UHGV virus genome: UHGV-0351052
DNA: 64,000 nt
Source: a virus
Strand: one strand, 5' to 3'
Made by a program: the position numbers and the translations under genes. The notes beneath the pieces were generated by a model, which worked only from the letters and a program-made list of their open reading frames with translations, was not told the DNA's origin and did no database searches. This document shows, piece by piece, positions 1,850-52,644 of the stretch (positions within the stretch are counted from its first letter, which is position 1; each line of letters opens with the position of its first letter).

Positions 1850-3832
1850 ATGGCAAATACCCCTGTAAATTATCAATTAACAAGAACAGCAAATGCTATT
1901 CCCGAGATATTCGTCGGGGGTACGTTTGCTGAAATAAAACAAAACCTCATTGAATGGCTTAATGGCCAAAATGAATTTTTGGATTATGATTTTGAAGGCT
2001 CAAGATTAAACGTTCTGTGTGACCTTTTGGCTTATAATACGCTGTACATTCAGCAGTTTGGTAATGCTGCTGTATATGAAAGCTTTATGCGTACTGCTAA
2101 CTTACGAAGCTCAGTTGTTCAAGCTGCACAAGATAACGGATATTTACCTACTTCAAAATCCGCTGCGCAAACCGAAATTATGTTAACATGCACCGACGCA
2201 TTGAATAGGAATTACATTACAATTCCTCGCGGAACTCGCTTTTTAGCATATGCAAAAGATACTTCTGTTAATCCATATAACTTCGTTTCTACCGAAGATG
2301 TTATTGCTATTCGTGATAAAAATAACCAGTATTTTCCACGTTTAAAATTAGCCCAAGGACGTATAGTAAGAACTGAAATCATTTATGATAAATTAACACC
2401 TATTATCATTTATGACAAAAATATAGATAGAAACCAAGTTAAGCTGTATGTTGATGGAGCAGAATGGATTAACTGGACAAGAAAGTCAATGGTTCATGCT
2501 GGTTCTACATCAACAATTTACTACATGCGTGAAACTATTGATGGAAATACTGAATTTTATTTTGGTGAAGGTGAGATTTCTGTTAATGCTGCAGAAGGAG
2601 CATTGACTGCTAATTATATTGGAGGTCTTAAACCTACTCAGAACTCTACGATTGTTATTGAGTACATCAGTACTAACGGTGCAGATGCGAATGGCGCAGT
2701 CGGATTTTCATATGCAGATACATTGACAAATATAACTGTCATCAACATTAATGAAAACCCAAATGATGACCCAGATTTTGTTGGAGCAGACGGCGGCGGT
2801 GACCCAGAAGATATTGAGCGTATTCGCGAATTGGGTACTATTAAACGCGAAACCCAGCAACGCTGCGTAACTGCGACTGACTATGATACATTCGTTTCAG
2901 AGAGATTTGGTTCTATTATTCAGGCAGTTCAGACTTTCACTGATTCTACTAAACCTGGGTATGCATTTATTGCTGCTAAACCTAAATCAGGTCTGTATTT
3001 AACTACCGTACAGCGTGAAGATATTAAAAATTATCTCAAAGACTATAATTTAGCTCCTATTACACCATCAATTATTTCTCCTAATTACCTTTTTATTAAG
3101 ACTAATTTAAAAGTCACATATGCTTTAAATAAGCTGCAAGAATCCGAACAGTGGCTCGAAGGTCAAATAATTGATAAAATTGATCGTTATTATACCGAAG
3201 ATGTAGAAATTTTTAACTCATCTTTCGCTAAATCTAAGATGTTGACATATGTAGATGATGCAGATCATTCTATCATTGGCTCATCAGCGACAATTCAAAT
3301 TGTTCGTGAAGTACAAAACTTCTATAAAACGCCTGAAGCAGGTATTAAATACAATAATCAAATAAAAGACCGTTCTATGGAATCTAATACGTTTTCATTT
3401 AATTCTGGACGAAAGGTTGTAAATCCTGATACTGGTTTAGAAGAAGATGTATTATATGACGTTCGCATAGTATCAACAGACCGAAATTCTAAAGGAATTG
3501 GTAAAGTTATTATTGGTCCATTTGCTTCTGGCGATGTTACAGAAAATAAAAACATTCGTCCATATACAGGCAACGATTTTAATAAATTAGCAAATTCTAG
3601 TGGACGCGACAAATACTATGTTATCGGTGAAATAAATTATCCAGCTGATATGATTTATTGGAATATCGCTAAAATTAATTTAACATCCGATAAATTTGAG
3701 GTTCAGACTATTGAATTATATTCTGACCCAACCGATGATGTTATCTTTACCCGTGATGGTTCACTGATTGTATTTGAAAATGATTTACGTCCGCAATACT
3801 TAACTATCGATTTGGAGCCTATATCACAATGA
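1850..3832 (+). CDS. 6: Baseplate wedge subunit gp6
   Basis: 660 aa, size and position as in T4; starts MANTPVNYQLTRTANAIPEIFVGG. Confidence 0.9.
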   Translation: MANTPVNYQLTRTANAIPEIFVGGTFAEIKQNLIEWLNGQNEFLDYDFEGSRLNVLCDLLAYNTLYIQQFGNAAVYESFMRTANLRSSVVQAAQDNGYLPTSKSAAQTEIMLTCTDALNRNYITIPRGTRFLAYAKDTSVNPYNFVSTEDVIAIRDKNNQYFPRLKLAQGRIVRTEIIYDKLTPIIIYDKNIDRNQVKLYVDGAEWINWTRKSMVHAGSTSTIYYMRETIDGNTEFYFGEGEISVNAAEGALTANYIGGLKPTQNSTIVIEYISTNGADANGAVGFSYADTLTNITVININENPNDDPDFVGADGGGDPEDIERIRELGTIKRETQQRCVTATDYDTFVSERFGSIIQAVQTFTDSTKPGYAFIAAKPKSGLYLTTVQREDIKNYLKDYNLAPITPSIISPNYLFIKTNLKVTYALNKLQESEQWLEGQIIDKIDRYYTEDVEIFNSSFAKSKMLTYVDDADHSIIGSSATIQIVREVQNFYKTPEAGIKYNNQIKDRSMESNTFSFNSGRKVVNPDTGLEEDVLYDVRIVSTDRNSKGIGKVIIGPFASGDVTENKNIRPYTGNDFNKLANSSGRDKYYVIGEINYPADMIYWNIAKINLTSDKFEVQTIELYSDPTDDVIFTRDGSLIVFENDLRPQYLTIDLEPISQ

Positions 3833-6927: not shown

Positions 6928-7924
6928 TTCAAGTGTTATCTATCGTGCGATAGTTACTTCAAAATTTAGAACAGAAAAAATGTTGAATTTTTATAATTCA
7001 ATTGGAAGTGGTCCGGATAAAAACACTATCTTTATTACATTTGGAAGATCAGAACCGTGGTCATCAAACGAAAATGAGGTGGGATTTGCTCCACCTTATC
7101 CCACCGATTCTGTGTTAGGTGTAACTGACATGTGGACTCATATGATGGGAACCGTGAAGGTTCTTCCATCTATGCTTGATGCAGTTATTCCTCGTCGAGA
7201 TTGGGGAGATACTAGATATCCGGATCCATACACATTTAGAATTAACGATATTGTAGTGTGTAACTCAGCTCCTTACAATGCTACTGAGTCAGGTGCAGGT
7301 TGGTTAGTATATCGTTGTTTAGATGTTCCTGATACCGGAATGTGTTCAATCGCATCTTTAACTGATAAGGATGAATGCCTTAAATTAGGCGGAAAATGGA
7401 CACCTTCTGTTAGGTCAATGACTCCTCCTGAAGGTCGAGGAGATGCTGAAGGAACAATTGAACCTGGGGACGGGTATGTATGGGAATATCTATTTGAGAT
7501 TCCACCCGATGTATCTATAAATAGATGCACGAATGAATATATCGTGGTTCCTTGGCCTGAGGAATTAAAAGAAGACCCGACTAGATGGGGATATGAAGAT
7601 AATCTCACTTGGCAGCAAGATGATTTTGGATTAATTTACCGGGTTAAGGCAAATACTATCCGTTTTAAAGCATATTTAGATTCAGTTTACTTTCCTGATG
7701 CTGCATTGCCAGGAAATAAAGGATTTAGACAAATATCAATAATCACGAATCCTCTTGAAGCTAAAGCTCATCCAAATGACCCAAACGTTAAAGCTGAAAA
7801 GGATTATTATGATCCAGAAGATTTAATGAGGCATTCGGGCGAAATGATTTATATGGAAAATAGGCCACCTATTATTATGGCAATGGATCAAACAGAAGAA
7901 ATCAATATTCTGTTTACATTTTAA
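6920..7924 (+). CDS. 8: Baseplate wedge subunit gp8
   Basis: 334 aa, order and size match T4 gp8. Confidence 0.9.
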   Translation: MNDSSVIYRAIVTSKFRTEKMLNFYNSIGSGPDKNTIFITFGRSEPWSSNENEVGFAPPYPTDSVLGVTDMWTHMMGTVKVLPSMLDAVIPRRDWGDTRYPDPYTFRINDIVVCNSAPYNATESGAGWLVYRCLDVPDTGMCSIASLTDKDECLKLGGKWTPSVRSMTPPEGRGDAEGTIEPGDGYVWEYLFEIPPDVSINRCTNEYIVVPWPEELKEDPTRWGYEDNLTWQQDDFGLIYRVKANTIRFKAYLDSVYFPDAALPGNKGFRQISIITNPLEAKAHPNDPNVKAEKDYYDPEDLMRHSGEMIYMENRPPIIMAMDQTEEINILFTF

Positions 7925-48333: not shown

Positions 48334-48599
48334 TATTCATCCTTCAGAGTTTGGTTTACAGCTCTATTATAAATCAATTCATCATTAAGCTCAGTCAAAG
48401 ACTTATGATATGTGGTTCTAACTTTATTTCCTTGCATCCAGTGCTTGATATAAATGAAACCTTGCTCTACACATTTTTTAAAAATTCGTTCATCTTTTTG
48501 AGCTCGGAATTCTGGATTGCATCTAAAAAATTGATTTACGTGACCGTAATCACGTGTAGTATTACCTTCATTTTCATAAATAGTGTGAACGACAAACAT
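48333..48599 (-). CDS. Hypothetical protein (30.1-like position)
   Basis: 88-aa ORF immediately upstream of ligase. Confidence 0.6.
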   Translation of the reverse strand: MFVVHTIYENEGNTTRDYGHVNQFFRCNPEFRAQKDERIFKKCVEQGFIYIKHWMQGNKVRTTYHKSLTELNDELIYNRAVNQTLKDE

Positions 48600-49438
48600 T
48601 AGAATGCTCCTTGGAAAATATTATTAGCACCAGTAGGTCTATTATACAAATACTCTATGCCACCGGGTTTAATATAGTTCCATGTCTGAAACGGATGCGT
48701 CTGATATGGATGATATAGATGATTATAAGGATTAAATCCAGGAGTTCTCCAGGTAGTGTTCCAAGGAAAAGAATTGTTTTTGATCATCTTTTCAATTACA
48801 TCTTTTATAGCTTTTTCACTATCAAAACTTTCTTTATTTTCCTTCGATGGAAAAAGCTTATTCTCTACATCGTTCCATGTATAAACTCGCTGAGCAGTTT
48901 TTGGAATACTGTCACGTTCCCCTCGAGCCATCCAATAAACAGGAACACTTAATATTTCACTCGCGTGATCGCAGTGGTGAGCGAGATCGTCAATATAACA
49001 AATTACGTTATATTTCTCTTTTGCCTTTTTGAACAACTCTTCTTTTGAAGAATCATGACCACACATCATTACTTCTGAGAAGGCACCAGGAAAAAGAGCA
49101 TTCAAATTAAATTGACGATTCAACAGAGCGTCAATAGAATCACCCAATGCTGTAACAGCAACAAAATTATAATCTTCTTTTAATTTGTTAATTACACATA
49201 GAGCATCTTTATACGGAGACAAGTAACGAATAAAATCTGAACGATTGTATTTTTCAATTAACTTGACGCCAAGTTCTTCATCACAATTAAAGAGTTTACC
49301 AGGAGAAATAAATTTCTCATCTTGGATCATTTTTAAAATATGTTCTAATGGAAGATTATATTTCTGAGCAAAATAAGGAAGGCCTGATTGCCAGCTTAAA
49401 CATACTCCATCAATATCAGTTAAAATAGTAGGCTTCAT
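48599..49438 (-). CDS. HAD-superfamily-like hydrolase with aromatic/Pro-rich C-terminal extension (30.2-like position)
   Basis: 279 aa; N-terminal LTDIDGV (HAD motif I-like DxDGx) and later YIDD; C-terminal 80 aa rich in W/Y/P/N. Confidence 0.6.
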   Translation of the reverse strand: MKPTILTDIDGVCLSWQSGLPYFAQKYNLPLEHILKMIQDEKFISPGKLFNCDEELGVKLIEKYNRSDFIRYLSPYKDALCVINKLKEDYNFVAVTALGDSIDALLNRQFNLNALFPGAFSEVMMCGHDSSKEELFKKAKEKYNVICYIDDLAHHCDHASEILSVPVYWMARGERDSIPKTAQRVYTWNDVENKLFPSKENKESFDSEKAIKDVIEKMIKNNSFPWNTTWRTPGFNPYNHLYHPYQTHPFQTWNYIKPGGIEYLYNRPTGANNIFQGAF

Positions 49439-49899
49439 AGAGAGTCTCTTAATAGGTTTAACACATCAATAAATTCAGCTTCGGTTAGTATTGTATCATC
49501 TTTTGTTAGACCACTAGCCATGCTGTGCTTCAAAACTTTTCCTTTCGAGGCTTGTAATGCATCACGAAAGCCCTTGTTTTGGATCGCTGCTTCAAAATAT
49601 GCATTTGTGTATAATTCTTTCCACGCCGGGGAGTATCTTGAAAACGGAACTCCAAGCCAGAAGAGGGTCCCACGGTCCTGAGCTCTAGCATAAGACCTTC
49701 CAGCTTGTTGGGCGGCAATCCCGGATAACCCAAATATACGACGTTGTTGTTCAGCATTTTTCACCTTACATCCTTGAAGGAATCCTTCGAGACCTCCAAA
49801 TTGGATACCATCCATAACGAAAGGCCATTGGGCGAAATTGCTTAATGCACATGATGGCCATCTAAAATTGCTTCTTATTTCTAGCTCAGACATTTTCAA
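49435..49899 (-). CDS. NADAR / YbiA-like domain protein (30.3-like position)
   Basis: 154 aa; segment LSNFAQWPFVMDGIQFGGLEGFLQGCKV parallels the YbiA/NADAR core FSNFAAWPIKVDGKTWPTSEHYFQAQKF as I recall it. Confidence 0.6.
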   Translation of the reverse strand: MKMSELEIRSNFRWPSCALSNFAQWPFVMDGIQFGGLEGFLQGCKVKNAEQQRRIFGLSGIAAQQAGRSYARAQDRGTLFWLGVPFSRYSPAWKELYTNAYFEAAIQNKGFRDALQASKGKVLKHSMASGLTKDDTILTEAEFIDVLNLLRDSL

Positions 49900-50092
49900 T
49901 ACTTATAATTTCAACATCAGCCCAATGACCATAGCAAGGAAGACGAAATTCAACTGGCCAGTTAGGGTCCTTTTCTAATATAATAGACTTAACTTGTGGT
50001 TCTTCATGTTCATCGGTATATGGATTTTTATCTGTTACTTTATATGTGACCTTAATGTACTGAATTCCAAAAATCTTATTAATTATATTCAT
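49886..50092 (-). CDS. Hypothetical small protein
   Basis: 68-aa ORF in tightly packed overlapping minus-strand array. Confidence 0.5.
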   Translation of the reverse strand: MNIINKIFGIQYIKVTYKVTDKNPYTDEHEEPQVKSIILEKDPNWPVEFRLPCYGHWADVEIISIENV

Positions 50093-50286
50093 ACTAATTC
50101 CTTTAATCCGTAGATAGGAGATAATTCATCACCCATACGAAGGTCTTCATTTCCATCTACCCAGGAAACAATATAAGCCTCTTTTATTTGAATACCACTC
50201 CATTTAAATGGAGGTAGAACCTTAGAAATTAATCCAGGTATACCAACTCCCTTTAATTCAACAGTTTGACCTAAAAAGAATTTCAT
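50089..50286 (-). CDS. Hypothetical small protein
   Basis: 65-aa ORF, ATGA-type overlap with neighbours. Confidence 0.5.
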   Translation of the reverse strand: MKFFLGQTVELKGVGIPGLISKVLPPFKWSGIQIKEAYIVSWVDGNEDLRMGDELSPIYGLKELV

Positions 50287-50573
50287 TAGAACCTCATCTG
50301 AAAACCGTGCGATTTAACATTACCGCCGCCAATATCAGAAATGTTAATTTCACGCGCAATTGAAGGGTCAATGTCAATTTCGCGATTGAGTTTAGTGATA
50401 GCTAAAGTATCACGCCCATTTACAGTACGAAACTCTAAAGGACAAACCACATCAACGTAGTTTTTAATCGATTCGCTAGTAGGTTGCAAATGTGCAGGAA
50501 GGTCTTTAGGCGACTTTGAGAAAACTACTTCGCAGAAGTTTTTACGGGTATCAAAATAAGTAGTCATAAACAT
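50286..50573 (-). CDS. Hypothetical protein
   Basis: 95-aa ORF. Confidence 0.55.
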   Translation of the reverse strand: MFMTTYFDTRKNFCEVVFSKSPKDLPAHLQPTSESIKNYVDVVCPLEFRTVNGRDTLAITKLNREIDIDPSIAREINISDIGGGNVKSHGFQMRF

Positions 50574-50614
50574 AACATTTTCCTCAGTAAGGGGCCAAAG
50601 CCCCTCATTTTATT

Positions 50615-50980
50615 TTAAATATCAAATTCATTAAGAACTACATCAAAGATTGCTTCAAGATGCTCAGGTTTGGCTTTGTTACTCAGAATATGACGAATCC
50701 AAGTTTTAACTAAGAGTTTACGATTAACACCATTCCAGCAAGGATGAGTCCCTAAATCGCGTTGACGAAAATCATCATCCAGAGCGATTTTAAAGTTGGA
50801 ACCTTCCATCGTGATTGAAACCGTGATGCCATTTTCAAATCGCATATAAACGTAATTAGGAGTCATATACTGTTCAATTTCGCATACTGATCCATTTTGA
50901 TGTTTCCAAAGGCAAATAGTATCAATAGAACCTGCAATACCATTAGAAACATATTTACGTTCAAAGTTGATGTAGTTCAT
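50615..50980 (-). CDS. Hypothetical protein
   Basis: 121-aa ORF. Confidence 0.55.
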   Translation of the reverse strand: MNYINFERKYVSNGIAGSIDTICLWKHQNGSVCEIEQYMTPNYVYMRFENGITVSITMEGSNFKIALDDDFRQRDLGTHPCWNGVNRKLLVKTWIRHILSNKAKPEHLEAIFDVVLNEFDI

Positions 50981-51048
50981 TTTTATTCTCCGGGATGTTT
51001 AATTGCGGTACAGGTATATAATATCATATTCTGTACCAAAGTAAACAA

Positions 51049-51381
51049 TTATTTTACTACTTTCCAGTGCTTCATGTCAAGTTTACCAACTTTTTTCATC
51101 TTCTCAATTAAGCGTTCGGCACGTTGGCGAGCTGTAACATAATGCCATTCACCTAATTCATTTTGTTCAATTTTTCCAACGATTACTGTATTCAATTCAT
51201 AAATCCAACCAGTAAAGAAATTATGAACTTGAATTGTAAAGGTGAAATCTGTTCCCATACCTTCTGCTGTTTCTACTTCAATAATATCACCTTCAACTGC
51301 CATTAAGAACCACATAGTTTCATCATATTTACCATTGAAGCATTTAGTTTTAACTGTAGCGTTCAGATTAATCGTTTTCAT
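51049..51381 (-). CDS. Hypothetical protein
   Basis: 110-aa ORF. Confidence 0.55.
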   Translation of the reverse strand: MKTINLNATVKTKCFNGKYDETMWFLMAVEGDIIEVETAEGMGTDFTFTIQVHNFFTGWIYELNTVIVGKIEQNELGEWHYVTARQRAERLIEKMKKVGKLDMKHWKVVK

Positions 51382-51460
51382 TTTATTCTCCTTTGTTTGT
51401 GTAAGATAATACTATCACAAAGGAACCATACTGTAAACAACTTTGTGCAATCTTTGGAAA

Positions 51461-51486
51461 ATAAAAAAGGACTCCCGAAGGAGTCC
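51461..51486 (-). terminator. Strong intrinsic terminator (minus strand): GGACUCC-UUCG-GGAGUCC + U6
   Basis: Perfect 7-bp stem, UUCG loop, followed by TTTTTTAT on minus strand. Confidence 0.8.
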
Positions 51487-51491
51487 TCAAC

Positions 51492-51668
51492 TTATGCTTT
51501 CTGCTTACCAAAACGAGAAGCATCATCTCGAAGAACCGCACGTGCTCGGCGCATGATCTTCTCAACAGTTTGATTGATACGAGAGTTCGACCCACGCTTG
51601 TAACCAGCGCGTTTAGAATCACCAACTTTCTTTTCAACTGCTTTCTTTGCTTTAGCTTGTTTTGCCAT
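51492..51668 (-). CDS. Small highly basic protein (Lys/Arg-rich)
   Basis: Track ORF 72 aa; internal start gives MAKQAKAKKAVEKKVGDSKRAGYKRGSNSRINQTVEKIMRRARAVLRDDASRFGKQKA. Confidence 0.5.
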   Translation of the reverse strand: MAKQAKAKKAVEKKVGDSKRAGYKRGSNSRINQTVEKIMRRARAVLRDDASRFGKQKA

Positions 51669-51912
51669 TATAAATTCTCTTTTAAATGAAAATGCAGGAC
51701 TTATTGGCATTGCCTGCGCAAGCCCTCAAGGGGAACATAGGTTTTTGGATATTTAACGACCAGGATAACCATAAACCCGTCATCATTCACATTCAAGAGG
51801 TACACCGTAAAACTGCCGGGGTCTTAAAACTATAATGATTCGCAAATCATTAATCAGACAGTTCGACGGCTCCTCGATTTAGCTCACACTAAGGCAGTGA
51901 ATCTCCAATGAA

Positions 51913-52161
51913 TTACTTCAGTGTTACCACAAAGTGACGAACTGCTTTTCGTGCAGCAGAAGCCAGAGGCTTAGCATATTTAAGTTCATCTTTTTCCTGA
52001 AGCTCAGCAGCTAATGCAGTTTGAGCAGGATTCAGATGTTTGAAATAACGCAGGATTTCAAGAGCTTCGGCTTCAACATCAATAGATGCGCCATAGTTTT
52101 CGTGACCATTATTCCATGCGTTTCGTTGCAGTTCAAGAGCGTGTTGTAATTGTTTAATCAT
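51913..52161 (-). CDS. rIII: rIII lysis-inhibition accessory protein
   Basis: 82 aa; size and position between 30.x array and gene 31 as in T4. Confidence 0.8.
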   Translation of the reverse strand: MIKQLQHALELQRNAWNNGHENYGASIDVEAEALEILRYFKHLNPAQTALAAELQEKDELKYAKPLASAARKAVRHFVVTLK

Positions 52162-52308
52162 TTAAAAATTCTCGTTAGAGATTAAAACTCGGTAGTCACG
52201 TTCTTCTGAATTTCATCTTCTTTCGACAGATCTCTCAGTTGTAGACTACCACGTAGAATTGTTCGGTTAACTTATTATTCCGACACCCAATTCATATTAT
52301 TATTTATA

Positions 52309-52644
52309 TCACTTATAAAGACACGGAATAGCTTTATAGTGACAGGTAACAAATTTTTGTTTAATTTCTTTTGGCTGCTTAAGACCCAGAGCTACAAAAG
52401 GATGCGGAACGTTTCGAATTTGACCAACTGGAAGAGAAGTCAAATCACCAACTTCGCAAAAACCTTCAGGAACATCAGGACCGACAGAGTGAACTACACA
52501 CAGTTCAGGAACTTCACCTTGAACACGTTTACCGATAATAAGTCCTGATTCTGTGACTTCTTCATCACCAGCCTGTGCAGGTTCAGAAACTAAAATAACA
52601 TATTCACCGACAGCACGAATTGGTAGCTGTTGTACTTCAGACAT
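52309..52644 (-). CDS. 31: Co-chaperonin gp31 (GroES analogue)
   Basis: 111 aa; begins [22 protein letters not shown]; matches T4 gp31. Confidence 0.9.

Follow-up and report, generated by a model that had tools for sequence, protein, structure and literature searches.

The 30.4–30.9 block of a Tequatrovirus genome: small early genes in probable separate modules, mostly with predicted binders of host macromolecules

Six small minus-strand open reading frames (ORFs) in a 64,000-nucleotide stretch of UHGV virus genome UHGV-0351052 (hereafter, the window) are the T4 genes 30.4, 30.5, 30.6, 30.7, 30.8 and 30.9. The block is the 30.4–30.9 part of the variable ("hyperplastic") segment that runs from DNA ligase to rIII in this T4-type phage. 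As ORFs, the six offer nothing new, being named, long-annotated T4 genes that were already known to be early and dispensable. Their arrangement and working mode can be specified further. The explanation that we favor, and hold to be probable, is that the genes form separate early modules whose products mostly bind host macromolecules.

The whole window belongs to Tequatrovirus. Its DNA is 98% identical to that of T4, with about 2% point differences, and phage teqhal is a marginally nearer relative (98.5%). The six proteins share 97–100% identity with their T4 counterparts, and orthology with the T4 gene set is supported both by sequence and by location between 30.3 and rIII. Six PHROG families are matched. 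In addition, 30.7 matches the Phage_T4_Gp30_7 family at full length (177 bits, E 1e-52, residues 1–120 to profile positions 1–118 of 118, gathering score 27 bits), as does 30.8 the Phage_30_8 family (195.5 bits, E 3e-58, residues 1–110 to profile positions 1–124 of 124, gathering score 25 bits). An earlier sequence-only reading of this DNA correctly reported six small minus-strand ORFs and their lengths (Table 1) without recognizing them as named T4 genes, two of which (30.7 and 30.8) define Pfam families.

Table 1. Genes and sequence elements of the block, with positions in the window
Feature	Position	Strand	Description
30.4	49886..50092	-	68 aa, acidic; 97% identical to T4 gp30.4; phrog_2042, E 2e-35
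30.5	50089..50286	-	65 aa; 100% identical to T4 gp30.5; phrog_1690
30.6	50286..50573	-	95 aa; 97.9% identical to T4 gp30.6; phrog_2153
G/C-rich hairpin	50590..50605	.	AGGGGC-UUUG-GCCCCU on the minus strand; within the spacer (41 nt) that separates 30.7 from 30.6
30.7	50615..50980	-	121 aa; Pfam PF06919
Early-promoter-like site before 30.7	51007..51045 (site 51045-51018)	-	TTTACT, 16 nt, TATTAT
30.8	51049..51381	-	110 aa; Pfam PF06019; 97% identical to T4
Early-promoter-like site before 30.8	51409..51437	-	TTTACA, 17 nt, TAGTAT; TG ahead of the -10 box
Intrinsic terminator	51457..51488 (terminator 51488-51467)	-	Directly after the 30.9 stop
30.9	51492..51668	-	58 aa; 100% identical to T4
rIII–30.9 spacer	51669..51912	-	244 nt; conserved non-coding, apparently structured; covers 51669-51710 of the array as first delimited

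Several lines of evidence establish that these are real genes. Purifying selection acts on all six (dN/dS 0.03–0.42 in comparisons with three genera), with values of 0.17–0.42 for 30.4, 0.17–0.21 for 30.5, 0.04–0.07 for 30.6 and 0.09–0.34 for 30.8; those of 30.6 and 30.7 are as low as 0.03–0.09. Synteny of the six ORFs is kept in four genera, which is far above chance, and a Shine-Dalgarno sequence precedes every start. In T4, early transcripts are listed for all six genes and early proteins for 30.4–30.8, and 30.9 was not detected by mass spectrometry (PMC9697503 Table S2). The notion that the ORFs are chance or misannotated frames without translation is hardly credible. This notion could appeal to the small size of the ORFs and to the missing 30.9 protein, but the early proteins already contradict it for 30.4–30.8, and 30.9 is strongly conserved as a protein. 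Moreover, the Lys/Arg-rich composition of 30.9 would be expected to yield mostly very short tryptic peptides.

The same genes appear to be dispensable on a laboratory host. When T4 genes were knocked down by CRISPRi-ART, five of the six were scored "Not Fit" (i.e., without fitness effect) and 30.6 was borderline ("Semi-Fit," score 0.72, p 0.067), whereas gene 31 was scored "Fit." A T4 mutant lacking 30.5 is likewise viable (bioRxiv 10.1101/2024.12.17.629029).

Overlapping ATGA-type junctions had been proposed for the entire array, and this description holds for only half of it. Overlaps are confined to 30.3/30.4, where the 30.3/adfN start overlaps the 30.4 end; to 30.4/30.5, where the 30.5 stop overlaps the 30.4 start (ATGA); and to 30.5/30.6 (TAATG). 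At the remaining three junctions, the genes are separated by 41, 68 and 110 nt, and these spacers contain a hairpin, promoter-like sites and a terminator. As had been noted, the terminator beyond the 58-aa gene is strong, with a 9-bp stem (GAGGACUCC-UUCG-GGAGUCCUU), a UUCG loop and a following U-run, and it has also been marked by other annotators in phages wV7 and WFbE185. A weak match of this element to Rfam Atu_C8 (31 bits versus a gathering score of 50) most likely reflects mere terminator resemblance and was set aside. The array was also thought to end with the basic 58-aa protein; instead, 30.9 is the 5'-most gene, and the terminator parts it from the other five.

Putative promoters were recognized by matching sequence to the consensus TTTACW-N17-TAYWAT, derived from the PST/T4 pair (PMC4122927), of the promoter-early stem-loop (PeSL) cassettes of T4-type phages (Arbiol et al. 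2010, PMC2839356; Comeau et al. 2014, PMC4122927). The site before 30.8 departs from this consensus at one position, in the -10 box, and has the terminator 30 nt upstream. Before 30.7, both hexamers fit and the spacer is one base short of N17, with an inverted repeat (GGTACAG...CTGTACC) straddling the -10 box. The G/C-rich hairpin between 30.7 and 30.6 is followed by no U-run on the coding strand. Consensus matching found no early-type promoter before 30.6 or, for 30.9, in the upstream spacer, and a general promoter scan gave no excess over shuffled sequence (9 versus 11.6 ± 3.3).

As judged from these elements, the block probably comprises at least three transcription units rather than a single overlapping operon. 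The first would consist of 30.9, with transcription probably continuing into it from the rIII side, and would be closed by its own strong terminator. The second would be 30.8 behind its early-type promoter. The third would begin with 30.7 behind a further such promoter, followed by the hairpin and then by a translationally coupled run of 30.6-30.5-30.4-(30.3/adfN).

Gene 30.9 is the outlier of the block. Its product has a pI of 11.4 and a net charge of +14, in keeping with its first description as highly basic, and carries the conserved core SKRAGYKRxSNxRI...RRARAVLR. The only start that is conserved among homologs is MAKQAK, and their alignment moves the upper boundary of the array from 51710 to the start of the 58-aa form; longer forms of 72 aa (up to 51710) and 97 aa were rejected because the extension is unconserved. 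None of the other five is as conserved: in Klebsiella phages its identity is 88%, compared with 76% for rIII and 69% for gp31, and 30.9 also occurs in Salmonella phage 7-11 of the unrelated family Grimontviridae. A profile search among 1.84 billion proteins gave 17 matches, none of which indicates a function; 16 are at most 97 aa long and basic where the sequence was inspected, and the last, a 617-aa repeat protein, is regarded as spurious. From its conservation, extreme basicity and predicted non-globular character, a role in binding nucleic acid or the ribosome would be the most likely one. Because 30.9 is very conserved, very basic and common to another phage family, it is worth testing first.

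The spacer between rIII and 30.9 is under selection as a non-coding element and is apparently structured. Large blocks of it are invariant across four genera, with a synonymous dS of about 0.8 in the flanking genes. RNAalifold predicts 50 pairs, 7 of them with compensatory changes, with pairing in 98.4% of cells; the observed count was reached in 2 of 500 shuffles, and controls in which the alignment was slid yielded 0–1. One predicted helix is TAATGATT/AATCATTA. The fold of the single sequence is not significant (z = -1.5), and searches of Rfam and for tRNAs returned no family and no tRNA match. A hidden gene, such as the 66-aa ORF annotated in wV7, was rejected as no frame is kept across alleles.

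Phages of the unrelated genus Justusliebigvirus also carry a circularly permuted copy of the spacer within their tRNA arrays, and the element has crossed between phage families. In this copy, the 30.9 start codon is joined in frame to the rIII tail. Such an arrangement is consistent with a circular intermediate without proving one. A tentative proposal, possible though not probable, is that the spacer is an undescribed structured RNA that was carried into Justusliebigvirus as a small circular DNA, along with the last 27 rIII codons, and that 30.9 is a functionally linked RNA- or ribosome-binding protein. The RNA could be a leader that controls 30.9 or a stable non-coding RNA. If true, this would provide a natural case of gene transfer by mini-circles, a route that has been proposed for PeSL cassettes, as well as a new phage RNA family.

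Searches by sequence and fold assigned no function to any of the six. Scans of Pfam, NCBIfam, PHROGs and PADLOC with all six proteins returned only self-named families or families of unknown function, and a sequence search of the PDB gave no match under E 0.1. In the predicted fold of 30.7, two helices come after a beta meander of seven strands; a structure search with this model found no informative neighbor, and the AF2 model of 30.8 is poor (pLDDT 61) and too unreliable for such a search. Structure prediction therefore says nothing for or against a binding role. A zinc site suggested by a Cys/His pattern in 30.7 was ruled out, as the cysteines are replaced in homologs.

What can be proposed is a shared mode of action. 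The six small proteins are unrelated, are made immediately after infection and are not needed for growth on a laboratory host; most likely, they act by stoichiometric binding of host macromolecules, retuning host physiology. This mode has been demonstrated only for 30.5; we infer it for the other five. T4 30.5 co-purifies with the host polyphosphate kinase (Ppk) in both directions, and 30.5 is itself sensed by the host NLR-like protein bNACHT11 (bioRxiv 10.1101/2024.12.17.629029). Co-expression of 30.5 and bNACHT11 is toxic, and deletion of 30.5 contributes to T4 escape from bNACHT11. The result carries over to the window because its 30.5 protein is identical to that of T4. A literature search by gene name turned up only this preprint for the six genes.

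The expectation that a T-even early array would house host-takeover and anti-defense factors is sound insofar as this is an early T-even block beside the NADAR gene 30.3/adfN. Its anti-defense part fares less well, as none of the six is known to have anti-defense activity. Were the six genes inhibitors of anti-phage defense that form one island with 30.3/adfN, the adjoining and translationally overlapping 30.3 would fit, as its product AdfN is a NADAR enzyme (PF08010) that protects T4 from DarTG1 and is needed on DarTG1 hosts. The genes are also early, small, patchy and dispensable on K-12, like known anti-defense genes, and 30.5 physically engages a defense protein. However, 30.5 activates rather than inhibits bNACHT11, and its loss helps the phage on bNACHT11 hosts. 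The T4 HIDEN-SEQ transposon screen covered a few defense systems (RexAB, RnlAB, CBASS, DarTG1 and DarTG2), and the available text names as hits only rIIA/B, dmd, 57B/acb1, 30.3/adfN and tk.4/adfM, and thus none of the six. Pfam, NCBIfam, PHROGs and fold searches found no similarity of the six to a characterized anti-defense inhibitor, and a PADLOC scan, which detects defense proteins rather than inhibitors, was negative. An inhibitor island is rather unlikely.

Comparison among relatives reveals a patchwork. Phage records vary by gene from 704 to 1041: 30.4 is limited to Escherichia-type T-evens (710 records), and 30.8 is found most often (1041 records), Aeromonas phages among them. Phages of many genera retain 30.7, 30.8 and 30.9, each with about 1000 records. 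Of these, 30.8 diverges fast, with 39–45% identity in Mosigvirus and Gaprivervirus. AnYang is without 30.4, 30.7 and 30.8, 30.6 is replaced in GADS24 by an unrelated ORF of 204 aa, and extra ORFs are interleaved in Karamvirus, Winklervirus and Klebsiella phages. One UViG (L026) is without exactly 30.7 and 30.8; at the junction, the leader of 30.8 is joined to the hairpin that precedes 30.6, such that the promoter-like site of 30.8 stands directly before 30.6 and the hairpin is retained at the point of deletion. PeSL-like junctions, if they act as such, would allow recombination to remove, exchange or add single genes or pairs, and this would explain the patchwork.

Cassette-like junctions and clean modular losses might also be taken to mean that mobile PeSL-type cassettes carry these genes as selfish or near-neutral cargo, which persists by cassette spread and not by benefit to the phage. 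The lack of a fitness effect upon knock-down on the laboratory host agrees with this idea, and PeSL mini-circles have been demonstrated for ORFans of this kind in RB49 and phi1 (PMC2839356). Strong purifying selection on 30.6 and 30.7 argues against it, as do the retention of 30.7, 30.8 and 30.9 in so many genera, the similarity of 30.9 between Escherichia and Klebsiella phages, and the specific host partner of 30.5. Overall, cargo without benefit seems quite improbable, and early modules that encode mostly host-macromolecule binders remain the preferred explanation.

About 130 T4 genes are still without a function, and the six genes provide a fair target list. With several modules that appear to be separately promoted or terminated, deletions are best designed per cassette. 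Through one member, 30.5, NLR-type immune sensing is already connected with the takeover of polyphosphate metabolism by the phage.

The closest known system is the T4 counterpart itself (AF158101 positions 128758-130540), which is alike in order, strand, lengths, junctions and terminator, with only point differences. PeSL cassettes resemble the block in having a stem-loop or terminator by an early sigma-70-type promoter, which in the block is a promoter-like site, followed by a Shine-Dalgarno sequence and an ORFan, within a hyperplastic region. Likewise, indels and replacements between relatives end at the cassettes (L026, AnYang and GADS24), and predicted stable stem-loops adjoin these sites (the terminator, the inverted repeat and the hairpin before 30.6). 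The block differs in that the full terminator-plus-promoter layout is found only at the 30.8 junction; that of 30.7 combines the inverted repeat across the -10 box with a 16-nt rather than a 17-nt spacer, and that of 30.6 has a hairpin but no promoter. The host-kinase binders that activate bNACHT11 (T2 gp6–CoaA, T2 gp57–GlpK and T4 30.5–Ppk; bioRxiv 10.1101/2024.12.17.629029) are represented in the window by the very protein tested, which is small, early and dispensable, whereas the other five have no detectable similarity to 30.5 or to each other. AdfN is encoded by the immediate downstream neighbor, which is likewise early, belongs to this block and is linked to 30.4 by the start overlap, yet it is an enzyme of a recognizable family, whereas the six ORFs belong to no recognizable catalytic family.

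The stretch 49000-52500 aligns over its full length with phage T4 (98.0%) and phage teqhal (98.5%) in a megablast search of phage genomes. In the T4 record, the matching stretch carries genes 30.2, 30.3, 30.3', 30.4-30.9, rIII, and 31, all on the minus strand, and from this gene order the six small ORFs are T4 genes 30.4 to 30.9, which are already annotated. A sequence-only reading had described six ORFs beside a NADAR-like gene, ending in a highly basic protein, and the ORF list bears out its lengths and coordinates. The basic protein is 30.9 (pI 11.4, net charge +14), and the NADAR label also holds, as 30.3 is AdfN, a NADAR enzyme needed by T4 on DarTG1 hosts (10.1101/2025.11.20.689424). The upper bound of 51710 given in that reading corresponds to a 72-aa frame for 30.9, which was rejected because the N-terminal extensions are unrelated among 14 aligned homologues. 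MAKQAK is the one start that this alignment conserves, so 30.9 has 58 aa.

Positions of the six genes and associated elements in the window, and of spacer copies in other loci (locus coordinates)
Feature	Position	Strand	Size	Details
30.4	49886-50092	minus	68 aa	97% identity to T4
30.5	50089-50286	minus	65 aa	100% identity to T4
30.6	50286-50573	minus	95 aa	97.9% identity to T4
30.7	50615-50980	minus	121 aa	97.5% identity to T4
30.8	51049-51381	minus	110 aa	97.3% identity to T4
30.9	51492-51668	minus	58 aa	100% identity to T4
G/C hairpin between 30.7 and 30.6	50590-50605			no promoter; no U-run on coding strand
Early-promoter-like site before 30.7	51045-51018	minus		TTTACT-16 nt-TATTAT; just past 30.8 stop
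Early-promoter-like site before 30.8	51437-51409	minus		TTTACA-17 nt-TAGTAT, TG before -10 box; 30 nt downstream of 30.9 terminator
Terminator directly downstream of 30.9	51488-51467			9-bp stem, UUCG loop, U-run
rIII–30.9 spacer	51669-51912	minus	244 nt	other junctions in block 0-110 nt
Spacer copy, muut (L003)	3001-3348
Spacer copy, A110a (L012)	2399-2788
Spacer copy, viral contig (L022)	8374-8721
Spacer copy, viral contig (L023)	1933-2280

Several database records (annotations of H8, H79, H81, H183, and protein P0043) name 30.9 or the spacer '1,4-alpha-glucan branching enzyme, GH-13-type', and 30.4 and 30.7 'baseplate hub'. These names are without support here and look like propagated annotation errors. 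Nearby, gene 30.2 (48599-49438) encodes a 279-aa protein for which a phosphotransferase-like fold is only weakly indicated (thiamine diphosphokinase, E 0.015-0.09; a polynucleotide kinase PHROG, E 0.003); some records call it a HAD-like hydrolase or 5' nucleotidase. The 75-aa ORF at 49530-49757 (minus), in another frame within 30.3/adfN, matches T4 30.3', to which a T4 omics table assigns an early protein class and no transcript class of its own.

The six ORFs are real genes. A Shine-Dalgarno-like sequence lies ahead of every start, and gene order is kept in Tequatrovirus, Mosigvirus, Dhakavirus, and Gaprivervirus. In comparisons with three of these genera, at synonymous divergence near or past saturation, pairwise dN/dS is 0.17-0.42 for 30.4, 0.17-0.21 for 30.5, 0.04-0.07 for 30.6, 0.03-0.09 for 30.7, 0.09-0.34 for 30.8, and 0.24-0.34 for 30.9. 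In T4, all six transcripts are early. Translation, the lack of which would by the sequence-only reading's own criterion have refuted it, is documented for five of the six, with 30.4-30.8 detected as early proteins and 30.9 not detected (PMC9697503 Table S2); the Lys/Arg-rich sequence of 30.9 probably accounts for the miss. The idea that these ORFs are not genes is contradicted and has a negligible chance of being correct. The T4 CRISPRi-ART screen lists 30.4, 30.5, 30.7, 30.8, and 30.9 as 'Not Fit', 30.6 as 'Semi-Fit' (score 0.72, p 0.067), and gene 31, which lies two genes further upstream than 30.9, as 'Fit' (PMC11879866, supplementary tables). Also, a T4 Δ30.5 mutant has been constructed and is viable (10.1101/2024.12.17.629029).

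The genes come and go separately among relatives. Dhakavirus AnYang has 30.3, 30.5, 30.6, and 30.9 and lacks 30.4, 30.7, and 30.8; in Mosigvirus GADS24, the expected place of 30.6 is taken by a 204-aa ORF; and in Karamvirus PG7, Winklervirus Kc304, and Klebsiella phage Roth51, other ORFs are interspersed among the retained 30.5, 30.7, 30.8, and 30.9. A 169.6-kb T4-like viral contig (L026, IMG/VR 2974742932_000001) lacks exactly 30.7 and 30.8. At its junction (7535-7675), the 30.8 leader, including terminator and promoter, is joined to the pre-30.6 hairpin, such that the predicted 30.8 early promoter would now drive 30.6-30.4. Phage records with a tblastn match (E ≤ 1e-5) number 710, 704, 752, 995, 1041, and 984 for 30.4 through 30.9, respectively. 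Selfish cassette cargo, as another account of the six genes, is at odds with both this wide retention and the strong purifying selection, and seems quite improbable. The block almost certainly consists of accessory genes that are independent of one another, early, and dispensable, and that would be laid out as recombining cassettes.

Among the six, 30.9 is the outlier. Homologues of 30.9 occur in T4-like phages of Serratia, Yersinia, Pectobacterium, Edwardsiella, Cronobacter, and Erwinia, and identity to the Roth51 protein is 88% (rIII 76% and gp31 69% in the same comparison). In the annotation of Salmonella phage 7-11 (Grimontviridae), gp134 is noted as similar to Aeromonas phage 25 gp30.9, and tblastn with 30.9 also recovered this phage. 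The gp134 gene (L016, 2444-2638) lies in an early-gene-like region with an Srd-like 'decoy of sigma70' gene and a tRNA. When 1.84 billion proteins were searched with a profile of the 30.9 family, 17 matches were obtained, 16 of them of at most 97 aa; the other, a 617-aa repeat protein, is regarded as spurious. Among the 16, those whose sequence was read are basic and have SKRAGYKRxSNxR, with a basic helix after it, in common. We infer that 30.9 may bind nucleic acid or the ribosome.

Homology searches with the six proteins offer no clue to function. The PHROGs that the six match are all of unknown function, Pfam matches of 30.7 and 30.8 are limited to their eponymous families, and NCBIfam, PADLOC, and PDB sequence searches returned nothing. 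The structure model of 30.8 is unreliable (pLDDT 61). Functional data were found only for 30.5, in one 2024-2026 preprint (10.1101/2024.12.17.629029): bNACHT11, an NLR-related defense protein, is activated by several unrelated phage proteins, T4 30.5 among them; T4 escapes bNACHT11 once 30.5 and two other activators are deleted; and host polyphosphate kinase co-purifies with tagged 30.5 in both directions. The sequence-only reading had proposed anti-defense factors, a plausible but unproven guess for which the genomic context is favorable. It is nevertheless unlikely, since the sole characterized member triggers a defense instead of inhibiting one, and since the accessible text of a T4 transposon study covering a few systems (RexAB, RnlAB, CBASS, DarTG1, and DarTG2) names no 30.4-30.9 gene as a hit (10.1101/2025.11.20.689424). 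The products might act by binding host components, and we consider the chances that they are binders of host macromolecules to be about even.

The organization had been described less precisely than the genes. The ORFs had been called packed with overlaps of the ATGA type; 30.3/30.4, 30.4/30.5 (ATGA), and 30.5/30.6 (TAATG) do overlap, but the other three junctions have gaps of 41 (30.6/30.7), 68 (30.7/30.8), and 110 nt (30.8/30.9). Overlapping stops and starts couple 30.6, 30.5, 30.4, and 30.3. The strong terminator said to end the array is real, but because 30.9 is the first of the six to be transcribed, it separates 30.9 from the other five. The 30.8 ribosome-binding site follows the upstream promoter-like site, and an inverted repeat, GGTACAG...CTGTACC, covers the -10 box of the site before 30.7. 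A look for early-type, MotA-type, and late promoter motifs in the 244 nt ahead of 30.9 found none (the closest late motif, TATAAATA, is at 52308, before rIII), so 30.9 is probably transcribed from promoters further upstream. This layout is a prediction from consensus matches, and in a generic scan promoter-like sites were not in excess compared with shuffled sequence.

The neighboring non-coding element is a more unusual object than the ORFs. No reading frame is kept across spacer alleles, so a coding role was rejected. Long blocks are invariant across four genera and far better conserved than the synonymous sites of the flanking genes (dS ~0.8). The RNAalifold prediction has 50 pairs in six helices; compensatory double changes are seen at 7 of these pairs (such as TAATGATT/AATCATTA to TACCGATT/AATCGGTA in AnYang), and 98.4% of alignment cells form a standard pair. 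The observed count of covarying pairs was reached by 2 of 500 column shuffles, and sliding partners by 1-3 columns gave 0-1. Given the close relationship among the sequences, few independent events lie behind these counts. Rfam and tRNA searches gave no match, and the window has no second copy. The spacer is a candidate structured RNA or 30.9 leader. Alleles differ in a middle piece that is absent in T4, ~50 nt in wV7, Bp7, and VR20, and 155 nt in Shigella phage SHFML-11, with terminal inverted repeats CTTATAGC/GCTATAAG. The 155-nt insertion (L015, 915-1071; near window 51787) is present in many Tequatrovirus genomes, has no Rfam match or significant fold (z = -0.7), and may be a miniature mobile element.

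Copies of the spacer are also carried by four Justusliebigvirus genomes (muut, A110a, and two viral contigs), which are unrelated to T4, distinct at the family level, and about 146-150 kb long. The copy lies between tRNA-Gly and tRNA-Gln in the tRNAs' orientation and is circularly permuted, with the spacer first and then the last ~85 nt of rIII; the 30.9 ATG is joined in frame to this rIII tail. In muut, which has a T4-type allele, a 12-bp direct repeat (TTATTGGAGATT) flanks the insert on both sides, its second copy being the 5' end of tRNA-Gln. A110a has a wV7-type allele: it is 94% identical across the 66-aa frame of wV7 and shares the ~50-nt middle piece. This arrangement is the product expected if a small circle had integrated through a single crossover.

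Both observations can be compared with the PeSLs of Krisch and colleagues, composite terminator/early-promoter motifs that flank ORFans in the hyperplastic regions of T4-type genomes. PeSLs bring about indels and replacements by recombination and are able to excise as mini-circles (PMC2839356); in the PST/T4 pair, their promoter consensus is TTTACW...N17...TAYWAT (PMC4122927). The predicted layout of the block resembles what was named PeSL (PMC2839356). The Justusliebigvirus copy fits the mini-circle transfer route put forward for PeSLs (PMC2839356) and is consistent with the spacer having crossed into Justusliebigvirus through mini-circle integration.
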